Shown here: piece by piece, positions 11,991 through 55,524 of the stretch
Layout of the letters: each line of letters begins with the position of its first letter
How positions within the stretch are numbered: position 1 is the first letter of the stretch
Source of the DNA: Dehalococcoidia bacterium UBA1123
Lineage (GTDB): Bacteria; Chloroflexota; Dehalococcoidia; Lucifugimonadales; UBA1123
NCBI GenBank assembly: GCA_002313895.1
Contig: DCAW01000079.1
Coordinates: 1 to 61,239 of the forward strand
Direction of reading: 5' to 3'
Length of the DNA: 61,239 nucleotides
Program-made: the position numbers and the translations under genes
Notes under the pieces: model-generated
The model's database searches: none
Told to the model about the DNA's origin: nothing
Seen by the model: only the letters and a program-made list of their open reading frames with translations

Positions 11991-13667
11991 CTACATATGC
12001 TCCGGCGCAGACATACTCATGAGGTCAAGGCAATTCGCAACGACGCTTTTTGCCGCCTGACACAATCTTAGACGCGCCTTGGTCAGTTCCTCGTCGCCCT
12101 CGACGTTGGAGACAACCCGACACTGCTGATAAAACCAGTGGAATGCGGTGGCAAGTTCCTGGGCGTAGTGGGGCAGATGGTGTGATTCCAGAGTTTTAGC
12201 CATCGTCTCGATCAGCTCTGGAAGCGCCAGCATCTTGCGGATTAGCGCAAGCTCCGCTTCATGGGTCAGTAGAGACAAATCTGCGTCCGAAAATTCGATC
12301 TCGCGCTCTTGAGCAAGCTTGAAAATCTGGGCCGTGCGAGCGTGGGCGTACTGTATGTAGAATACAGGATTCTCGTTGGATTGCTCTTTCGCCAACTCGA
12401 GGTCAAACTCCATCTGGGTCTCGGCGGCGCGGGATTGGAAGAAGTATCGGCAGGCGTCAACCCCCACTTCGTCCACAAGCTCGTCGATAGTGATGATGTT
12501 GCCGGCCCGCTTGGAAGCGCGGACCAACTCGTCCCCGCGCTTGAAGCTGACCATCTGATAAAGCATCATATCCAATCGGTCGGGGTCGAATCCCAGAGCC
12601 TTGACCGCCGTTTTCATTCTGTTCACGTGGCCCTGATGGTCGGCTCCCCAGATATTGATCACGCGGTCGAATTTGCGATTGTTGAATTTGTCGTAGTGGT
12701 ACGCAATGTCAGAGGCGAAGTAGGTGTGCTGTCCATTGCTTCGGATTATGACGTTGTCCTTGTCCTCGCCGAGCGCCGAGGAAGTGAACCACTTGGCCCC
12801 GTCGCGCTCTTCCCAGTATCCGGCGTCCTTAATGATCTTAATCGCCTCGTCGAAGGTTCCCGAATCGAATAGCGATTCTTCGCTGAACCACTCGTCGTAC
12901 TTCACTCCGATACGGCCCAACCTCTCACGAATGTCATCAACCATCCGGTTCAGGCCGCGTTGACCTAACCGATGTGTGGCATCTTCGGTTTCGAGGCTTA
13001 GATACTTATCGCCGTCCTCGGATTTGATGTCTGCGGCCAAGTCGATCATGTAGTCGCCCTGATATCCGTTCTCAGGAATCTCGGCGTCTTTGCCAAACTG
13101 CTGGAGGTAACGGGCATAGAGGGACTTGTAGAACAGTTCCATCTGGTTGCCCGCGTCGTTGACGTAGTATTCTCGCTGAACGTCGTAACCTGCTGCATCC
13201 ATGATATTCGCTAGCGCGCTGCCGATGACGGCGCCTCGCACGTGTCCAACATGCAACGGGCCGGTGGGATTCACGCTCACAAATTCAACCTGTACGCGTT
13301 GGTCTTGACCGAAGTCGCTCCGACCGAACGATTTGCCCGCGTCAATGATGACATCCACCTGTTGAGCAAGCCAGGGCGGGTTCAGGGCGAAGTTGATGAA
13401 ACCGGGTCGCGCTGTCCAGACGCGACTAAGAACCTCGTCTGTGGGGATGCCCTCTGCAATCTTGTCGGCGATGGTTAGAGGATTCATCTGCATTGACCTC
13501 GCCAGTTTCAGTGGAAGGCTGCAAGAGAAATCGCCGTTTTCGATGTTGTTCGGCCTCTCGATGGCCGGGTCCTCGACTTCTGTGTCAGGCAAGTCTCCCT
13601 TTGATTGAGACTCGCTGAGGGAGTTCAGGACGAGTTCGGAGATTTTGAGTCGTGTTGTCGGTTGCAT
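11991..13667 (-). CDS. argS: Arginine--tRNA ligase
   Basis: A class I HIGH-type motif (PTGPLHVGHVRG), ArgRS-like N- and C-terminal domains, and a terminal ...APEHM. The start is ambiguous: ATG 13667 or TTG 13742. Confidence 0.9.
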   Translation of the reverse strand: MQPTTRLKISELVLNSLSESQSKGDLPDTEVEDPAIERPNNIENGDFSCSLPLKLARSMQMNPLTIADKIAEGIPTDEVLSRVWTARPGFINFALNPPWLAQQVDVIIDAGKSFGRSDFGQDQRVQVEFVSVNPTGPLHVGHVRGAVIGSALANIMDAAGYDVQREYYVNDAGNQMELFYKSLYARYLQQFGKDAEIPENGYQGDYMIDLAADIKSEDGDKYLSLETEDATHRLGQRGLNRMVDDIRERLGRIGVKYDEWFSEESLFDSGTFDEAIKIIKDAGYWEERDGAKWFTSSALGEDKDNVIIRSNGQHTYFASDIAYHYDKFNNRKFDRVINIWGADHQGHVNRMKTAVKALGFDPDRLDMMLYQMVSFKRGDELVRASKRAGNIITIDELVDEVGVDACRYFFQSRAAETQMEFDLELAKEQSNENPVFYIQYAHARTAQIFKLAQEREIEFSDADLSLLTHEAELALIRKMLALPELIETMAKTLESHHLPHYAQELATAFHWFYQQCRVVSNVEGDEELTKARLRLCQAAKSVVANCLDLMSMSAPEHM

Positions 13668-13742
13668 GATATTATTGGGCGCAGTCCGAGGTTCCTTGAT
13701 TAAATTGTTCGGTTGATTCGGTTGTGCTGAGTTTGGAGGCAA

Positions 13743-14807
13743 CTATTTCCAAACGTCTATTAGCACGCCGCTGTCGAGATCAGACTGGTCGACTATTTCA
13801 CCGATCACGGCACGGGTCTGAACTCCAGACGACTCAAGCTCTGACAACAACTCCGCCGCTTTGTCCGACTGGACGGAGATCAAGAGACCGCCAGAGGTTT
13901 GGGCATCAGCCAGCAATATCGGAGCGTTGTCATACAGCCCGTCAGCAAACGCGGTGTATTTTTCGGCGCTGTTGAGATTTCGGTGGGTTCCGCCTGGCGC
14001 AATACCGGAGTCAACCAGATCGAACACGCCATCCATGAACGGAATGTCGCCGAACCTAAGTCTGGCGCCGACGCCGCTGGCGACGGTCATGCCGTGAAGG
14101 TGACCCAGGAGACCAAATCCGGTGACGTCAGTGCAGGCGTTCACTCCAACACGCATCATCGCCTCGGCGGCGGCTTTGTTGAGAGTTGCCATGATGTCGA
14201 TAGCGTCAGCCAGCAATTGTTCTGCGATCTTTTGCTGCTTGCCTGCCGTAGTTATTATGCCCATGCCCAGTGGTTTGGTCAGGACGAGAGTGTCTCCGGG
14301 CTTGGCGTCGGCGTTCGAGACTTGATTCCCGGGTTTCACGATACCGGTGACGGCCATTCCATATTTGGGTTCCGCGTCATCGACCGTGTGGCCCCCCACG
14401 ATCAGGACTCCAGCCTCAGCCGCTTTGTCTGCCCCGCCTTTCAGGATATTTCCCAAGATGTCTTTGGGCAGGCCGACAGGAAATCCGACGATGTTCAGGG
14501 CGAGAATCGGCTTTCCTCCCATCGCGTAGACATCGCTCAGGGCGTTGGCGGCCGCGATCCGCCCGAAATCGGTAGGGTCGTCTACGACCGGCGGGAAGAA
14601 ATCCACTGTCTGAATCAACGCCAAGTCGTCGTTCATCCGATAGACAGCGGCGTCATCTGCGGTGTTGATTCCGACCAACAGGTTAGGATCGGTGACTGGT
14701 GGTAGCTGACGCAGTACCTGCGCCAGGTCCTCTGGACTAAATTTGGCCGCTCAACCAGCGCAAGATGCAAGCTCTGTGAGGCGGATGTGCTCGTGAATCT
14801 GAGTCAA
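13743..14807 (-). CDS. selD: Selenide, water dikinase (selenophosphate synthetase) with in-frame UGA (Sec) at codon 19
   Basis: Tracked ORF 13743..14678 lacks the N-terminus. Reading upstream in the same frame gives MTQIHEHIRLTELASCAG-U(TGA 14751-14753)-AAKFSPEDLAQVLRQLPPVTDPNLLVGINTADDAAVY. This aligns with E. coli SelD ...IRLTQYSHGAGCGCKISP...DPNLLVG..DDAAVY, placing U on catalytic Cys17. TTG start at 14807. Confidence 0.85.
14706..14726 (-). promoter_or_regulatory. Candidate bacterial SECIS hairpin of selD
   Basis: CUGGCGCAG-GUA-CUGCGUCAG has a 9-bp stem with one G.U pair. It starts 25 nt after the UGA, and its apical loop contains GU about 34-36 nt downstream. Confidence 0.45.
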
Positions 14808-14866
14808 TGGTCCCTCGCTTTGGTTTAACTCATGCAGTGATCGATTGCCGACAATTATAGCAAAGC

Positions 14867-16315
14867 CTACATTACTGGGTGGCCTGACGGAGCATAGGCC
14901 GCAAGCTCGCGATTGCCGGGCAGGAATTTGGCGTTGCCCATTTCGCGCTTCATTTCGCCGTCCTCTATGATGATTTCTCCGCGCTGCATCGAGAACACCG
15001 GCTTGCCCAGAACCTCTTTGCCTTCGAACATCGTGAAATCGGCTATACAATGCTGTGCATCGGCGCTGAGGGTGTGGGCCACCGACGGATCGAACAGCAC
15101 GATGTCGGCGTCTGATCCAGGCTCTATCGCGCCTTTTTGCGGGTACAGGCCGAAAATCTTGGCCGGATTTTCGCTCATCACCTGAACCAGCCTAGGAAGC
15201 GTTATGCGTCCGTTGTTCACGCCTTCTTCGTAGGCGACGCACAGCATTTGCTCGGCCCAGTTCCCGCCGAAACTAGCGTCGAAGATACTTGCCTCGGTGC
15301 TCACTTCGGACTGGTCTTCGATGACCGCGCTCTGGCCGCCGGTGGATTTCTGTGACTTCTTGAATCCGCAAAAGTCGCTGGCAATCGTGTCGATAAGTCG
15401 GGAGTCCAGGCCGCGCCACATAGCTTCATTGTCTTCGCGTTCCCGCAAGGGAGGCCCGATTTTCGCCAGCGGGCCGTGGTCGAGCATAGCCTGGTTAGTC
15501 AGGTCGAGGTACTGAGGGCAGGTCTCGCCATACAATCTCAGTCCGTCGCCTTTGAATTTTTCGAGGCTGGCTAGAATCTCCCTTGCGCTCAGGTGGACAA
15601 CGTATAGCGGACAATCCGTGACCGTCGCGTACGTGGCGGCCCGATTGAACGCTTCGATTTCTAGAATACGTGGCTGAGTAGGCGCATAGTATTCTTTTGA
15701 TGTGTGACCTTCGGCAGTGAAGTTATCGACCAGATGGTCGATGCAGTAGCCGTTCTCGGCGTGGACCATCGCGATTCCGCCGTCACGCGACGCCAACTCC
15801 ATCGCTCTGAGCATCTTGTCGTCCGGCATCATCATGCCGCGTCGGGGGTAGGTCATGAACATCTTGAAGGATATGACACCCATCTCGATGAGTCTTGGCA
15901 CCTGGTACTCGACATCATCGTCGCCTACGAGTATCGCGTGGATACCAAAATCGAGATAAGAAGTCTCGTGGGCCTCGTCCAGGAAGCGGTTGACTGCGTC
16001 AAGCGTCGTGCCTTCGATGCCGATCGCGCGTTGGTGTTGGATAAATGGGACGACCGTAGTGATGCCTCCAAATGCGGCGCTGAGAGAGAATGTCTCGATT
16101 CGGTCGGCGTTGATGGGGTGGTTGTGTGCGTCGATTATCCCTGGAAAAACGTAAGCGCCGCTGGCGTCGATGGTCCGCTTCGCGCCGTCATTGGGCAGGT
16201 CTGTGCCCACTGCCTCAATCTTGCCGTCCTTGATAAGCACGTCTTCTCGCGTGACTCCGGTGCCGCGGACCAACAGGCCGCCGGAAATAATGTAATCGGC
16301 TTTCTGTGAATTCAT
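14867..16315 (-). CDS. Cyclic amidohydrolase (D-hydantoinase / dihydropyrimidinase-like)
   Basis: MNSQKADYIISGGLLV...KIEAVG...GAYVFPGIIDAHNHP shows the amidohydrolase metal-site pattern. ATG 16315 is preceded by AAGGAGA. The tracked 655-aa ORF adds a spurious N-terminal extension. Confidence 0.8.
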   Translation of the reverse strand: MNSQKADYIISGGLLVRGTGVTREDVLIKDGKIEAVGTDLPNDGAKRTIDASGAYVFPGIIDAHNHPINADRIETFSLSAAFGGITTVVPFIQHQRAIGIEGTTLDAVNRFLDEAHETSYLDFGIHAILVGDDDVEYQVPRLIEMGVISFKMFMTYPRRGMMMPDDKMLRAMELASRDGGIAMVHAENGYCIDHLVDNFTAEGHTSKEYYAPTQPRILEIEAFNRAATYATVTDCPLYVVHLSAREILASLEKFKGDGLRLYGETCPQYLDLTNQAMLDHGPLAKIGPPLREREDNEAMWRGLDSRLIDTIASDFCGFKKSQKSTGGQSAVIEDQSEVSTEASIFDASFGGNWAEQMLCVAYEEGVNNGRITLPRLVQVMSENPAKIFGLYPQKGAIEPGSDADIVLFDPSVAHTLSADAQHCIADFTMFEGKEVLGKPVFSMQRGEIIIEDGEMKREMGNAKFLPGNRELAAYAPSGHPVM

Positions 16316-16469
16316 TCGACTCTCCTTTGTGGGTAGTGTCGCCAGTATCTTAACGGGCAGCGTCTGGGTGTCAAGGGCGGCGTGATTGAACGCAGACTGC
16401 GGTGACGGTAGAATGTGGACGGCATCGAAAATCAAAACCGTACCATTCTTGGGATTAGGGGAGGACTTG

Positions 16470-17279
16470 ATGACTGAACACTCAATGACAATTGGAAAAG
16501 TTGAACTGGTATCGTTGACCGACGGTGGCATGGGGCCGGCTGCCACGGACTTTTTCCCGGACAGCACAATGGACACCTGGAGATCCGAGTTCCCCGAGCT
16601 CTTGGACACCGACGGCAACATCGGGCTCCGGTTGGGTTCGTTGGCGGTCCGTTCAGGTGGCAAGCTGGTCATTGTAGATACGGGCATGCAGTTTCCAGAT
16701 GGCAGTGGCACGCTCATGACTGACATGGCCGAAAAGGGTGTTGACCGTGTAGCCGTTGATCTGGTGGTGATGACCCACCTGCACGCGGACCACGTAGGGT
16801 GGAACCTGACCAACGGAGCCCCGACATTCCCCAACGCGCGGTACTTGGTTCCCCGGACCGACTGGGACTATTGGACCCAACCCGATGTGCTTGCCAGTGC
16901 CGAGCATGTGCAAAATCAAGTCTTGCCTCTGGAAAAACTGAACATCATGGACCTTATCGAGGACGATTACAGCATCACCGACGACCTGACTACGATCGCC
17001 ACGCCGGGCCACACGCCCGGTCACATCTCCATCGTCATCGTCTCCTCCGGTGAGCGGGGATTTATCCTTGGCGACGTGGTCCACAGCCCGGCCCAGGCCC
17101 ATCTAACAGACTGGAACCCGAGCTTCGACATTGACGGGGAAACATCCCGAAAGACCCGACATGCGATTCTGAGCCAGTTGGAGTCTGACCGATCGGTGGT
17201 GGCGTCAGGTCACTTTCCTGACCCAGGATTCGGCAAGTTCGTCCGAGAGTCCGGCCGCCGAATCTGGCAGGGGGTCTGA
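16470..17279 (+). CDS. MBL-fold metallo-hydrolase
   Basis: THLHADHVGW (HxHxDH motif) and later TPGHTPGH. ATG 16470 follows GGGAGGA. Confidence 0.8.
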   Translation: MTEHSMTIGKVELVSLTDGGMGPAATDFFPDSTMDTWRSEFPELLDTDGNIGLRLGSLAVRSGGKLVIVDTGMQFPDGSGTLMTDMAEKGVDRVAVDLVVMTHLHADHVGWNLTNGAPTFPNARYLVPRTDWDYWTQPDVLASAEHVQNQVLPLEKLNIMDLIEDDYSITDDLTTIATPGHTPGHISIVIVSSGERGFILGDVVHSPAQAHLTDWNPSFDIDGETSRKTRHAILSQLESDRSVVASGHFPDPGFGKFVRESGRRIWQGV

Positions 17280-33586: not shown

Positions 33587-33883
33587 TTATCTCAAATCAG
33601 CGATAGTGACTCCACCGTTTCCTTCTGCTGGACTCGCCGCGTAGTGCCGAGTTACCAGCGGATGTTTCGACAGGTATTCAGCCACCGCGCCTTTCATGGT
33701 TCCTGTGCCTTTCCCGTGGATGACCCGCACCCGATGCAATCCGGCCATGGATGCGTCGTTCAGATATTTGTCCAACTTTGACAACGCAGGTCGAACCTTC
33801 ATCTGCCGCAGGTGGACCTCGGCTGACATCGACGCCGTCCTCATCAGCCTTGATGGTTGGTCGTCTCGCCTTCGTGAGGTCAC
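33587..33883 (-). CDS. Smr (small MutS-related) domain protein
   Basis: ...VHLRQMKVRPALSKLDKYLNDASMAGLHRVRVIHGKGTGTMKGAV...GNGGVTIADL. The GTG start overlaps the selA stop (GTGA). Confidence 0.75.
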   Translation of the reverse strand: MTSRRRDDQPSRLMRTASMSAEVHLRQMKVRPALSKLDKYLNDASMAGLHRVRVIHGKGTGTMKGAVAEYLSKHPLVTRHYAASPAEGNGGVTIADLR

Positions 33884-35277
33884 GATGCGGCGTTCGGTTG
33901 AGCAATGTTGTTCAGCGCTTCCCGCAAGTCGCTCTCGTCGCCCGGAAGCACGGTTCTAGGGTCTAGAATAACCGCGTCGTCCTCGATGCGGGCCACGATA
34001 GGCGGGTTGTTGTCCCTCAGACGTTGGGCCATCTTTTCGGCTTCCCCAGGCTGTAGGGATGGGATTCGGGTCACCCAGGTCGGGAGGGTCTCTCCAGGCA
34101 GGCTGCCTCCGCCGATCGCGGACCGGGAAGCGACCGAGACTCCGTTCTGAGCGAAACTGGCCCAGGATTCGGATTTTCGTCGCAGTTCTTCTTCTGTTGC
34201 CGATATCATCCGCCAAATAGGGATTTTTGATGTGGCCTCATCGCGGATGTAATGAAGGACTGTGGCGGCCAGCGCCGCCATGCTCATCTTGTCGATCCTG
34301 ACGGCCCGCGCCAGTGGGTGGCTCGACACTCTGGCAACCGCTTCTTTTTTGCCGATGATGATTCCCGCCTGCGGCCCCCCCAACAGTTTGTCGCCAGAGA
34401 AAAACCCAAGCTCAACGCCGGCGGAAACGCTCTGTTGAGGCATAGGCTCGGGAGCCAACCCATAAGGCACGGTGTCCAGTAGACAACCGCTTCCGAGATC
34501 GTGGAGGACAGGAACGCCTCGACGGTGTCCGACCTCGACCAACTCCTCAAGGGTCGGGGCGTTCGTGAAACCGATCACCTTGAAATTGGATGCGTGGACA
34601 GACAGGATCGCGCCAGTGTTCTCGGTGATCGCCGCATCGAAATCGCGCGCGTATGTGCGGTTGGTGGTCCCGACCTCGACCAGAGTTGCTCCGCTCTGTC
34701 GCAGGACGTCGGGGATTCGGAACCCGCCGCCGATTTCGACGGCCTCGCCCCTCGATACGACTACTTCTTTGCCAACAGCGAACGTCGCCAGAGCCAACAT
34801 GATGGCTGATGCGTTGTTGTTCACGACCATTGCGGCCTCGGCTCCAGTCACCTGACTCATCAATTGAGACATGTGAGATTGCCGAGAGCCGCGCTTGCCG
34901 GTTTCCAGGTCCATCTCCAGGTCGCTGTATCCTGAGGCGGCGCGGTGCATGGCTTGAATCGAATCGTCACTGAGCGGGGCGCGACCAAGATTGGTATGCA
35001 AGATAACGCCGGTGGCATTAATCACGCGCTCTGGCCAGGCGCGCCATCGTTTGCTGGCCTGGTGTTCGATTTCAAAGACCAGGGAAGGGAGATCCGGGGG
35101 ATCGGCCCCTTCTGACACCGCCGCCCTGATTTCTTCGAGATTTTGTCTAATGAGGTCGAGAACCGCATCTCTGGAGTGCGCTTCGATCAGCTGAACGATG
35201 GCGTCTTCCTCAAGAATACGGTTCACGGGAGGGATTGCTCTGAAACCTGATGTCATACTCACAGCGCTCTGATCCAA
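33880..35277 (-). CDS. selA: L-seryl-tRNA(Sec) selenium transferase
   Basis: VINATGVILHTNLGRAPLS and the PLP-lysine motif FFSGDKLLGGPQAGIIIGKK are SelA hallmarks. TTG 35277 and ATG 35256 are possible starts. Confidence 0.9.
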   Translation of the reverse strand: MDQSAVSMTSGFRAIPPVNRILEEDAIVQLIEAHSRDAVLDLIRQNLEEIRAAVSEGADPPDLPSLVFEIEHQASKRWRAWPERVINATGVILHTNLGRAPLSDDSIQAMHRAASGYSDLEMDLETGKRGSRQSHMSQLMSQVTGAEAAMVVNNNASAIMLALATFAVGKEVVVSRGEAVEIGGGFRIPDVLRQSGATLVEVGTTNRTYARDFDAAITENTGAILSVHASNFKVIGFTNAPTLEELVEVGHRRGVPVLHDLGSGCLLDTVPYGLAPEPMPQQSVSAGVELGFFSGDKLLGGPQAGIIIGKKEAVARVSSHPLARAVRIDKMSMAALAATVLHYIRDEATSKIPIWRMISATEEELRRKSESWASFAQNGVSVASRSAIGGGSLPGETLPTWVTRIPSLQPGEAEKMAQRLRDNNPPIVARIEDDAVILDPRTVLPGDESDLREALNNIAQPNAAS

Positions 35278-50529: not shown

Positions 50530-51723
50530 ATGGGCCTATCTGAGCGCCTGATTTACATGGATCATGCTGCCACAACTGCAGTTAGGCCAGAGGCGTTGGA
50601 GGCCATGCTGCCATACTTCGGCGTCAGCTTCGGCAATCCTTCAAGCATTTACACGCTCGCTCAAGAAGCCCGTAACGCTGTCGATGATGCCAGGCAAACA
50701 ATCGCCGGATTGATTGGGTGCCGCATCAGTGAGTTGATTTTCACCAGCGGAGGCACTGAGTCGGACAATACAGCGCTGAAGGGCGTCGCATTCGCGTTGA
50801 GAAACGTTGGCAACCATATCATCACAACCGCCATCGAACATCACGCGATACTGCACACCTGCCACCAGTTGGAACAGTTTGGGTTCGACGTGACCTACCT
50901 GCCGGTGGACAGGCACGGATTGGTGGATCCGGACGATGTCGCGAAGGCTATCACGGATCGCACGATACTCGTCAGCGTGATGCTGGCAAACAACGAGATT
51001 GGGACCATCGAGCCAGTGGCGGCAATCGCCCGGACCGTGAAGCAAGAAGCCCGCCGTCTCGACAGGAACATACTAATGCACACGGACGCTGTTCAAGGGG
51101 CTGGATTCCTGGACCTAAATGTCCGAGAATTGGGCGTTGATCTCATGAGCCTGTCGGCCCACAAGTTTCACGGACCAAAAGGCGTTGGCGTGCTTTATGT
51201 CAAGCGGGGAACTCCCTTTGAGCCTCAGATGATGGGCGGCGGCCAGGAACGCGAGCGGCGGTCTGGCACGGAGAATGTTCCGGGAATCGTCGGCATGGCG
51301 GAAGCGTTTCGGCTGGCTTGTCAGGAACGTGAGACGACGGCGGCTCGATGCGTTGCGATGCGAGACAGGATCATAGAGGGCCTCCAGGATCGCGTGGAAC
51401 ATGCTCACCTCAATGGGCATCCCGTCGAGAGGCTCCCGAACAATGTAAATATCTCTTTCGAGGCCGTAGAGGGTGAGCCTATACTACTGGGCCTCGACTT
51501 TGCTGGGATCAGCGCTTCCAGCGGAAGCGCGTGTTCGTCGGCCTCGCTCGAACCTTCTCATGTGTTGCTGGCTATCGGTCTTGCCGCAGAACTGGCGCAG
51601 GGGAGTGTTCGTATTACTCTCGGTAAAGACAATACCGACGAAGAGGTTGATTATATGCTGTCGGTGATACCAGACCTTGTTAATCGACTGAGGGCCATGC
51701 CCTCGCTATCAGGTGTTCAGTAA
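50530..51723 (+). CDS. Cysteine desulfurase (NifS/IscS family)
   Basis: The PLP-lysine motif [12 protein letters not shown] and the active-site loop SSGSACSS. Confidence 0.88.
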
Positions 51724-51725
51724 AT

Positions 51726-52343
51726 ATGATTCGATTGTTGTCGACGAAACTTCGCGATTCGGCCCATTATGTAAATCGCGAACGCTCAACAAACCAGCAT
51801 ACCCTCAAGGCTTCCAAGGCGTCCGTTTTGACATTAGTCCTCGTGTTGATGGCGATGATGGTCGTGGCCTGCAACAGCGCGCCAGATGTGCATCTTGCGC
51901 GGGGACGAAGCATAGAAATTCAGGTGAGCAGGCCTGTGGTCAAGACCAAAATGTCATTTCTCGATGATGAAGGAAAGCATCGTGTCGTGCGTCCCAGAGC
52001 GTCAAATCGCCAGCTTGCGATGGTCGAAATCGCTGTTGTGAACCGCACAAGCACGGTCATGCCTTTATTGATTGACGAAGAAGCTGCAGAACTTGGTGAC
52101 AGGCGCGGCGAACGCATCGAGGCGCTCGATCCGTTCGTTAATTCCCGTGTAGTTGAGGCGGCTGGTCCTAAAGAGGATGAGTTTGCTCCGTTGCTCTGGG
52201 GCGAAGTTCAATTGGACAGAGATTTCCAGGTGAAGGGGTGGATGATTTTCGACGTTCCAAAAGGTCTCACACTGGGCTCGGTATTCTGGAACGAGATTGA
52301 AGAGATCATCGCTGACTATGTTAACTATTTCGATCGCGGTTAA
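51726..52343 (+). CDS. Putative lipoprotein, DUF4352-like
   Basis: Signal peptide plus lipobox VVAC. The beta-rich C-terminus with ...GWMIFDVPKG is reminiscent of DUF4352, by recollection. Confidence 0.5.
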   Translation: MIRLLSTKLRDSAHYVNRERSTNQHTLKASKASVLTLVLVLMAMMVVACNSAPDVHLARGRSIEIQVSRPVVKTKMSFLDDEGKHRVVRPRASNRQLAMVEIAVVNRTSTVMPLLIDEEAAELGDRRGERIEALDPFVNSRVVEAAGPKEDEFAPLLWGEVQLDRDFQVKGWMIFDVPKGLTLGSVFWNEIEEIIADYVNYFDRG

Positions 52344-52951: not shown

Positions 52952-53049
52952 GGGAGCGGATGGGGCCTGGTGGCTCCTGCGGTCTTCAACACCGTTGGCG
53001 GCAACCCTGCGGTTGGCGCGGTGGGTTCGACTCCCTCTCGCTCCCGCCA
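52952..53049 (+). tRNA. selC: tRNA-Sec (anticodon UCA), CCA encoded
   Basis: Hand-folded 98-nt tRNA. It has an 8-bp acceptor GGGAGCGG/UCGCUCCC (the last pair is G.U) and a 6-bp D stem GGGGCC/GGCUCC with the 4-nt loop UGGU. The anticodon arm is GCGGU-CUUCAAC-ACCGU (UCA). A long variable arm (CGGCAACC-CUGC-GGUUGGCG), T loop UUCGACU, discriminator G and CCA complete it. The layout parallels E. coli selC. The tracked ORFs 52911..53141 and 52970..53182 are spurious. Confidence 0.85.
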
Positions 53050-54501: not shown

Positions 54502-55524
54502 TTAAAACTGAATCCGTTTCGTGACCGAGCGAGTCCCATTACCCGCGGTCCACAACGGTATTATACTAGAAAACGCTCCGGCTGCGCCGCCTGCAACCAG
54601 CACATTGATATTTTCAGGTTTGGATGCCGTTGAGATCATCTGAGAACTGTCGTCGCTCTCTGGAAGAACCTGACCCTCCGCTCTCCATTCGGCCTCTGTG
54701 CGTTGGGCAAGCTCGAACAACGTCTGTTTCACCTGGTTTTTGGTCCACCCGGCGGCTCTGAAATGTCCGATATGCTCAGGGCAAAGCACGATGTTCAACT
54801 CTCCGTGTCTGGCGCCGATGGCGAACATCCCGTCTCGGAAGCTGTTCAGGATATCCCGCGGCGACTCGCTCTCGTGGTTCGCAACCTGAATCCCCGACAG
54901 CGCAGCGAATATTGTCACCGCGCTTTCGTTTTCGGATAGACCACGCTCGACGTGCAGCGGTTCCCACGGACTCACATTGGTATCCTCGGCCATGCACCAG
55001 GTGTACTTGCCGGGATGGCCCAGAGTTGCCTTGTCGATCTCCCCAGAAGAAGAGCCGGTGGCGTTGATAATTACGAGCCTGATGGCGCGCCCGATGGTAG
55101 CGTTTGCGCGATGGCCCGGGCCGAACACGCTCACGCCGGAGTTGATGCCGATTTCGGAGACCACCGGCCCACCCACTACCATTAGAACCGCCGCGCCCAT
55201 TGTGCTGGCCGTGATCGCGTGGAGATTAAATTCCGGTTCGCACATCGCTTCAACAGCCGTGGCGACGACAGGGAAGTATTCTGGACGACACCCGGCCATC
55301 ACTGCGTTGACCGCGACCTTTTCGGCGGTTATCACGCGTCCTTTCGTTGGCTCGGCGCCGATAACATCGGAGGGCGAACGATGGGCCGCGTCAAGAAACT
55401 CACGCACTAGGTCTTGAGTAGGCGGGACGATTGGAAGACCGTCGGTCCAACCTCGGCCAAAGTAGTCTTCTATAACTTGTGAGGCGTCGTCAAATTCCAG
55501 TATTCGAGATGTCAAGTTGGTCAT
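54502..55524 (-). CDS. Conserved-looking protein of unknown function, upstream operon partner of the UGSC selenoprotein
   Basis: 340-aa ORF with no competing ORF and globular composition. Segments include GRGWTDGLPIVPPT, KVAVNAVMAGCRPEYFP, GPGHRANATIGRAIRL and LGHPGKYTWCMAED. A 38-nt gap separates it from the UGSC start. I cannot assign a family. Confidence 0.7.
   Translation of the reverse strand: MTNLTSRILEFDDASQVIEDYFGRGWTDGLPIVPPTQDLVREFLDAAHRSPSDVIGAEPTKGRVITAEKVAVNAVMAGCRPEYFPVVATAVEAMCEPEFNLHAITASTMGAAVLMVVGGPVVSEIGINSGVSVFGPGHRANATIGRAIRLVIINATGSSSGEIDKATLGHPGKYTWCMAEDTNVSPWEPLHVERGLSENESAVTIFAALSGIQVANHESESPRDILNSFRDGMFAIGARHGELNIVLCPEHIGHFRAAGWTKNQVKQTLFELAQRTEAEWRAEGQVLPESDDSSQMISTASKPENINVLVAGGAAGAFSSIIPLWTAGNGTRSVTKRIQF

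Follow-up and report, generated by a model that had tools for sequence, protein, structure and literature searches.

The selD gene of this marine-type, SAR202-like Dehalococcoidia (Chloroflexota) genome almost certainly encodes a selenocysteine-containing selenophosphate synthetase, its catalytic loop interrupted by an in-frame UGA that is followed by a hairpin within the coding sequence. The gene lies on the reverse strand of the window, the whole 61,239-nucleotide stretch of DNA that was analysed.

A selD frame with a single in-frame TGA

The mechanical list of open reading frames contains a 311-aa frame (13743..14678, reverse strand, TTG start) whose start lies inside selD. Upstream of 14678 the frame remains open as far as a TTG at 14807-14805, interrupted only by a single TGA at 14753-14751, and it ends at a TAG stop at 13743, so that the read-through product has 354 residues. 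With the TTG taken as methionine this product reads LTQIHEHIRLTELASCAG-U-AAKFSPEDL...DPNLLVGINTADDAAVY, and the N-terminus with the TGA written as U is (M)TQIHEHIRLTELASCAG-U-AAKFSPEDLAQVLRQLPPVTDPNLLVGINTADDAAVY.... The same extension had been put forward in a sequence-only reading, and both the sequence and its translation agree with it. Direct inspection from this TTG up to the TAG (14869-14867) that ends the upstream gene revealed no other in-frame ATG, GTG or TTG. In relatives, selD has its start codon (ATG, GTG or TTG) at the corresponding place, preceded by GGAG/GGAGG-like boxes. A complete SelD beginning 3' of the UGA, which would speak against the proposal, was not found: the next start, at 14678, would remove the first 43 residues, the Sec/Lys loop among them. 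The gene and its surroundings comprise the following features.

13743..14807, reverse strand: selD coding sequence, 354 codons plus stop, putative selenide, water dikinase with Sec at residue 19 (TIGR00476, NF002098 and the 3u0o alignment)
14805..14807, reverse strand: TTG start codon of selD, with a Shine-Dalgarno-like GAGG at 14816-14813, 5 nt 5' of the TTG
14751..14753, reverse strand: in-frame UGA predicted to be read as selenocysteine (U19) in the loop SCAG-U-AAK, from the Cys17 alignment and conservation
14867-16834, reverse strand: amidohydrolase-family gene upstream of selD
about 11991-13666, reverse strand: argS, on the other side of selD
14854..14862, reverse strand: possible promoter box of the extended -10 type, TGCTATAAT, in the 59 nt that separate the amidohydrolase gene from selD, found by eye only

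Profile scores above the curated cut-offs place the read-through protein in the SelD family, with 393 bits against TIGR00476 (selD; cut-off 125) and 378.9 bits against NF002098 (cut-off 299); its enzyme activity is putative. It is collinear with Escherichia coli SelD (3u0o) over residues 7-340 (E = 1.5e-78) and also with SelD of Aquifex aeolicus (2yye; E = 1.1e-67), whose site carries Sec naturally and Cys in the crystallised protein. The printed alignments set 'ascagCaakfsp' of the window over 'shgagCgckisp' of E. coli and 'rssgCaakvgp' of A. aeolicus, and U19 is therefore the equivalent of the catalytic Cys17 of E. coli, where the sequence-only reading had placed it, and of the Sec that occurs naturally in the Aquifex enzyme. 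Lys22 aligns with the essential Lys20 of E. coli SelD, and the glycine-rich loop SCAG-U19-AA-K22 as a whole matches GAG-C17-GC-K20 (3u0o) and SSG-C-AA-K (2yye).

The TGA is conserved among relatives. A six-frame search of 40 relatives, spanning the genus, family and order of the window, found exactly one selD TGA in 38, which are all the genomes with the gene, and it occupies the identical column in each. Its context is invariant in these relatives ([ST]-[CS]-A-G-*-A-[AS]-K-F-S-P), the motif in the order being SCAG-U-A[AS]KFSP. Among 107 selD loci collected across phyla, the codon is TGA in 89 and TGC or TGT in 18. When 29 relatives are compared with the window over the 13 codons that precede the UGA, the tally is 188 synonymous and 77 nonsynonymous codon differences, which argues that the region upstream of the apparent stop is translated and under protein-coding selection. 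A reassigned genetic code was considered and ruled out, since TGA is an ordinary stop in the window, where it ends 11 of the 35 ORFs of at least 250 aa. An in-frame UGA that aligns with the Cys of homologues, is conserved among orthologues and has coding conservation on both sides marks selD as a predicted selenoprotein gene.

The only two of the 40 relatives with no selD match are G002 (same family, genus g2) and G039 (same order), whose best SelD-like matches (E of 7e-8 and 5e-6) are paralogues only. As G002 is 93% complete in 4 contigs, it may represent a lineage that has lost selenium utilisation.

The gene stands alone between the amidohydrolase gene and argS, outside any sel operon. The TGCTATAAT box may be the selD promoter; a promoter and terminator scan around selD returned nothing above shuffle expectation, and the consensus scan does not call the box because it has no good -35. 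The other strand has a 268-aa ORF (13899-14705) that shadows selD. The mechanical argS ORF (583 aa, 11991..13742) has its start directly at the stop of selD. The initial 25 codons do not look like coding sequence (LPPNSAQPNQPNN...), and argS likely starts at ATG 13666 (MQPTTRLKISELV...), with a 76-nt spacer to selD (13666-13742).

The hairpin 3' of the UGA and its registers

Two overlapping hairpins can be drawn in the coding sequence just 3' of the UGA.

14706..14726, reverse strand: putative SECIS hairpin in register A, a 9-bp stem pairing 14726-14718 with 14714-14706 around the loop GUA (14717-14715, the Val31 codon), from folding and covariation
14713..14731, reverse strand: alternative overlapping hairpin in register B, AGGACCUG-GCG-CAGGUACU, with 7 of 8 pairs in the window and one G.A mismatch

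Register A has the sequence CUGGCGCAG-GUA-CUGCGUCAG. Its first base is the 25th nucleotide after the UGA, leaving 24 nt between them, and the distance from the UGA to the apical loop is 33 nt. Position, pairing and loop confirm the 9-bp hairpin with GU in its loop that had been noticed in the sequence-only reading. The minimum free energy (MFE) is -12.8 kcal/mol, compared with -4.4 +/- 1.9 kcal/mol in 200 dinucleotide shuffles, none of which equals it (z = -4.5), and the hairpin is also part of the MFE fold of larger contexts. The 71-nt context around it is unexceptional alone (z = -1.55); the signal is the register A hairpin itself and its conservation, not the wider 71-nt context. The general bSECIS model prescribes an apical loop of 3-9 nt, a stem of 4-16 bp, a UGA-to-loop distance of 16-37 nt, a G within the first two loop positions (usually G[G/U]) and an MFE of at most -7.5 kcal/mol (PMC13188914). 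Register A agrees with it throughout (3-nt loop GUA, 9-bp stem, 33 nt, -12.8 kcal/mol), so that the SECIS prediction proposed earlier is supported by this model (PMC13188914) as well as by the covariation described below. Scans with the Rfam SECIS families gave no match across the whole window at gathering scores or in 14600-14900 at E <= 10, where the sole match was a chance lncRNA, and for this reason the hairpin is classed under the general bSECIS model only. Directly 5' of the stem, the MFE fold contains a 4-bp hairpin, GUCC-AGA-GGAC (14727-14737). This small hairpin is confined to sequences with AGU as the Ser codon, and hence is not conserved in genus g4.

Comparison of 81 nt around the codon in the 107 loci, aligned free of gaps, supports the hairpin. 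In register A 73.9% of cells are paired. Sliding the 3' arm by 1-3 columns lowers this to 28-43%, and none of 500 shuffles attains the covariation score of register A. The cleanest signal comes from synonymous sites. The codons for Gln+11 and Leu+13 occur as CAG/CUN in 54 loci, CAA/UUG in 7, CAA/CUG in 3 and CAG/UUG in none (Fisher p = 2e-7; this and the other covariation counts carry no phylogenetic correction), and the synonymous double changes from CAG/CUG to CAA/UUG back the hairpin. Codon +10 is the reverse complement, allowing wobble, of codon +14 in 40/89 Sec-type but 3/18 Cys-type selD genes. The residue pairs found at these positions are Ala GCG/Arg CGY, Ser UCG/Arg CGA, Ala GCA/Cys UGY, Ala GCU/Ser AGY and Ser UCC/Gly GGG; residues +10 and +14 of Sec-type SelD thus co-vary because their codons are reverse complements. 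Contiguous stems of at least 7 bp within 60 nt 3' of the codon are present in 78 of the 89 Sec-type genes compared with 5 of the 18 Cys-type genes. In the Sec-type genes the usual loop start is at +30 or +36, counted from the U of the UGA, with G as the first loop base in 61/78. Sec-type and Cys-type genes are not significantly different in the overall MFE of the 60 nt that follow the codon (p = 0.21). This measure was replaced by local-stem and fixed-register counts, and only the local-stem measures separate the two types.

Could register B be the functional element instead? The region is quasi-palindromic, and register B, with the general form AGGACCUG-GNN-CAGGUYCU and its loop at +30, is perfect (8/8) in 31/89 Sec-type selD genes. 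It shows covariation of its own, with 81.5% of cells paired, a score reached by 0 of 500 shuffles and a C-G to U-A exchange at columns 36/46. The genus of the window (g1) has register A, as do other families of the order and several other phyla, Bacillota and Gemmatimonadota-type among them; genus g3 has register A together with a register B that is perfect or nearly so. In the 21 genomes of the sister genus g4, replacements of Ala by Gly and Arg by Ser weaken register A to 3-7 of 9 pairs, while register B holds 7-8 of 8 pairs in all 21, is perfect in most and constitutes the MFE hairpin in most, with a GGN loop. That register B (14731-14713, loop GCG, 27 nt from the UGA) acts as the SECIS of the window, or that both registers alternate there, would be in keeping with its dominance in g4, its covariation and the double fit in g3. 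In the window, however, it carries the G.A mismatch, reaches only -4.9 kcal/mol and retains 5 pairs in the MFE fold, against 9/9 pairs, -12.8 kcal/mol and a bSECIS-typical G-U loop start for the phylogenetically widespread register A. Register B is accordingly an improbable choice for this gene, and register A is taken as its functional element.

These comparisons also allow a tentative model, somewhat less likely than not, whereby the selD SECIS is mobile: in a single Dehalococcoidia family the hairpin bound by SelB would have moved by 6 nt, from register A (loop GUN at +36) to register B (loop GGN at +30), via an intermediate perfect in both as in g3, the move being fixed by the coupled replacements Ala29 to Gly and Arg33 to Ser. 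A third register, with its loop at +23, is the fold of a few genomes of g4 (L015, L017, L022 and L024). Where both registers form, they could be alternative conformers that tune the efficiency of Sec insertion. No published description of a 6-nt register shift between sister genera with coupled amino-acid changes was found; it adds a detail, not a novel type of system, and is the only mildly new material here.

Selenocysteine machinery and the reading of the UGA

The genome is a metagenome-assembled genome (MAG) in 196 contigs, 89% complete, and it contains selA, selB, selC and selD, the set expected of a Sec-decoding organism, with selB present as two contig-end fragments. One contig, C184, ends in the N-terminal piece of selB (286 bits, above the curated cut-off), and another, C51, starts with the C-terminal piece, which fits a single gene split by the assembly and presumably intact in the organism. 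Two further components lie in the window.

52952..53049, forward strand: selC, tRNA-Sec with anticodon UCA (Rfam RF01852, 67.6 bits against a gathering score of 47; ARAGORN tRNA-SeC)
33880..35277, reverse strand: selA, L-seryl-tRNA(Sec) selenium transferase, the predicted consumer of the selenophosphate made by SelD (TIGR00474, 542.8 bits, cut-off 267.9)

Directly upstream of the tRNA-Sec gene lie a NifS-type cysteine desulfurase and a 205-aa protein without a family match (50530-52343). The desulfurase scores 532 bits against TIGR03402, just above the cut-off, with weak similarity to the Sec lyase SclA, and could be a partner of SelD in selenium delivery or as a Sec lyase. Downstream of selC, a 340-aa ORF on the reverse strand (54502-55524) has no Pfam match.

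With these components, translation of selD would begin at TTG 14807, and on arrival of the UGA (14753-14751) in the ribosomal A site, SelB-GTP carrying Sec-tRNA(Sec) would be bound to the hairpin at 14726-14706 and would deliver Sec in competition with RF2. The product would display Sec19 and Lys22 in the flexible, glycine-rich loop at its N-terminus, which binds selenide and attacks ATP. The selenophosphate so made would supply SelA, encoded 19 kb away, and lead to more Sec-tRNA(Sec).

Is selenocysteine the residue actually inserted? When thiophosphate replaces selenophosphate, the Sec machinery of some systems can put Cys at UGA. The codon might thus be read as Cys (via Cys-tRNA(Sec)), or as Trp by near-cognate decoding, at least under low selenium, and leakage of this kind would offer a means of bootstrapping a SelD that itself depends on Sec. 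Against such readings, tRNA-Sec, selA and selB are all present, the hairpin fits the SelB-type model and TGA is elsewhere an ordinary stop; moreover, Cys-type selD genes use TGC or TGT and lack the hairpin, which indicates that the combination of UGA and hairpin is selected as such. Cys or Trp at this position is very improbable compared with Sec. Still harder to credit is a TGA that acts as a real stop (through a nonsense mutation, a pseudogene or an assembly error), leaving no functional SelD or one truncated from TTG 14678: standard gene callers do give only the 311-aa ORF, and the assembly is fragmented, but the identical TGA recurs in the 38 relatives and the 89 loci across phyla, the 18 codons 5' of it are conserved as protein with mostly synonymous changes, the 14678 start deletes the catalytic loop, and the genome holds the full Sec machinery.

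Known Sec-dependent synthetases and selenium supply

Descriptions of selenocysteine-containing SelD, and of the autoregulation it implies, go back to the 1990s. Among prokaryotic selenoprotein families, SelD is described as ranking second in distribution (PMC1794560, PMC13188914), and bSECIS elements in prokaryotic selenophosphate synthetase (SPS) genes are discussed in PMC4561486. The window SelD belongs to the same enzyme family as the Sec-SelD/SPS2 proteins of Haemophilus influenzae, Aquifex aeolicus, Clostridia, Deltaproteobacteria and Methanococcus, and mammalian SEPHS2. It shares with them a Sec placed three residues ahead of the essential Lys in a glycine-rich loop near the N-terminus, an in-frame UGA followed by a coding-region stem-loop and the same implied autoregulation; with the A. 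aeolicus enzyme it has the core ...G-U-A-A-K... in common. It differs from them only in lineage (Dehalococcoidia, SAR202-like) and in local details, such as its position outside a sel operon in a genome without selU. The arrangement is already known and ordinary, and opens no new question. E. coli SelD, although collinear and similar in its Lys20 and PurM/AIR-synthase-like core, has Cys (UGC) and no SECIS, where the window has Sec (UGA) and a hairpin.

The hairpin likewise resembles the bSECISearch model and the SECIS of E. coli fdhF in being a coding-sequence stem-loop just 3' of the UGA with a small loop that starts with G-U. In the minimal fdhF element an 11-nt spacer follows the UGA. The window hairpin starts farther away, at 24 nt, yet within the general model of 16-37 nt. 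Relative to the bacterial SECIS consensus, its 33-nt spacing and its MFE (below -7.5 kcal/mol) fall inside the expected range, whereas the loop has only 3 nt, there is no bulged U and no Rfam SECIS family matches.

Does SelD depend on its own product? No second selD was found in the 89%-complete MAG, and the two weaker SelD-like matches, both rejected, are ThiL (245 bits) and an AIR-synthase/HypE-like protein that falls below all cut-offs and lacks the Sec/Cys-x-x-Lys loop. Since this is the only selD found, full-length SelD would need the product of its own pathway, which would place a positive feedback on selenium supply. The sequence-only reading had described selenophosphate synthesis as dependent on Sec insertion, and this as an autocatalytic dependence on selenium supply; this is a sound, long-known idea, and it holds here to the extent that a single selD was found. 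The genome also has no selU (TIGR03167), so selenouridine is not an evident second use of selenophosphate.

A search on SAR202 and selenoproteins in the literature collection used found no paper. The SAR202-like Dehalococcoidia lineage, essentially the whole order, appears to keep the Sec-decoding trait together with a Sec-dependent SelD, which would tie all of its selenoprotein synthesis to the supply of selenium. For marine communities it has been suggested that the protein sustaining Sec use may be SelD and not FdhA (PMC13188914), and the presence of Sec-SelD across the order fits those remarks. The practical outcome is a correction of the annotation: standard ORF calling truncates selD to 311 aa, and the gene should be entered as a selenoprotein of 354 residues, its translation exception placed at 14753-14751.

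A further local detail concerns the catalytic loop itself. The window SelD has a Cys three residues before Sec (C-A-G-U, Cys16-Ala-Gly-Sec19, 14754-14765), where E. coli SelD has C-G-C (C17-G-C19). This CxxU arrangement is near-invariant in the order (27/29 relatives), and this Cys could form a resting selenenylsulfide with Sec.
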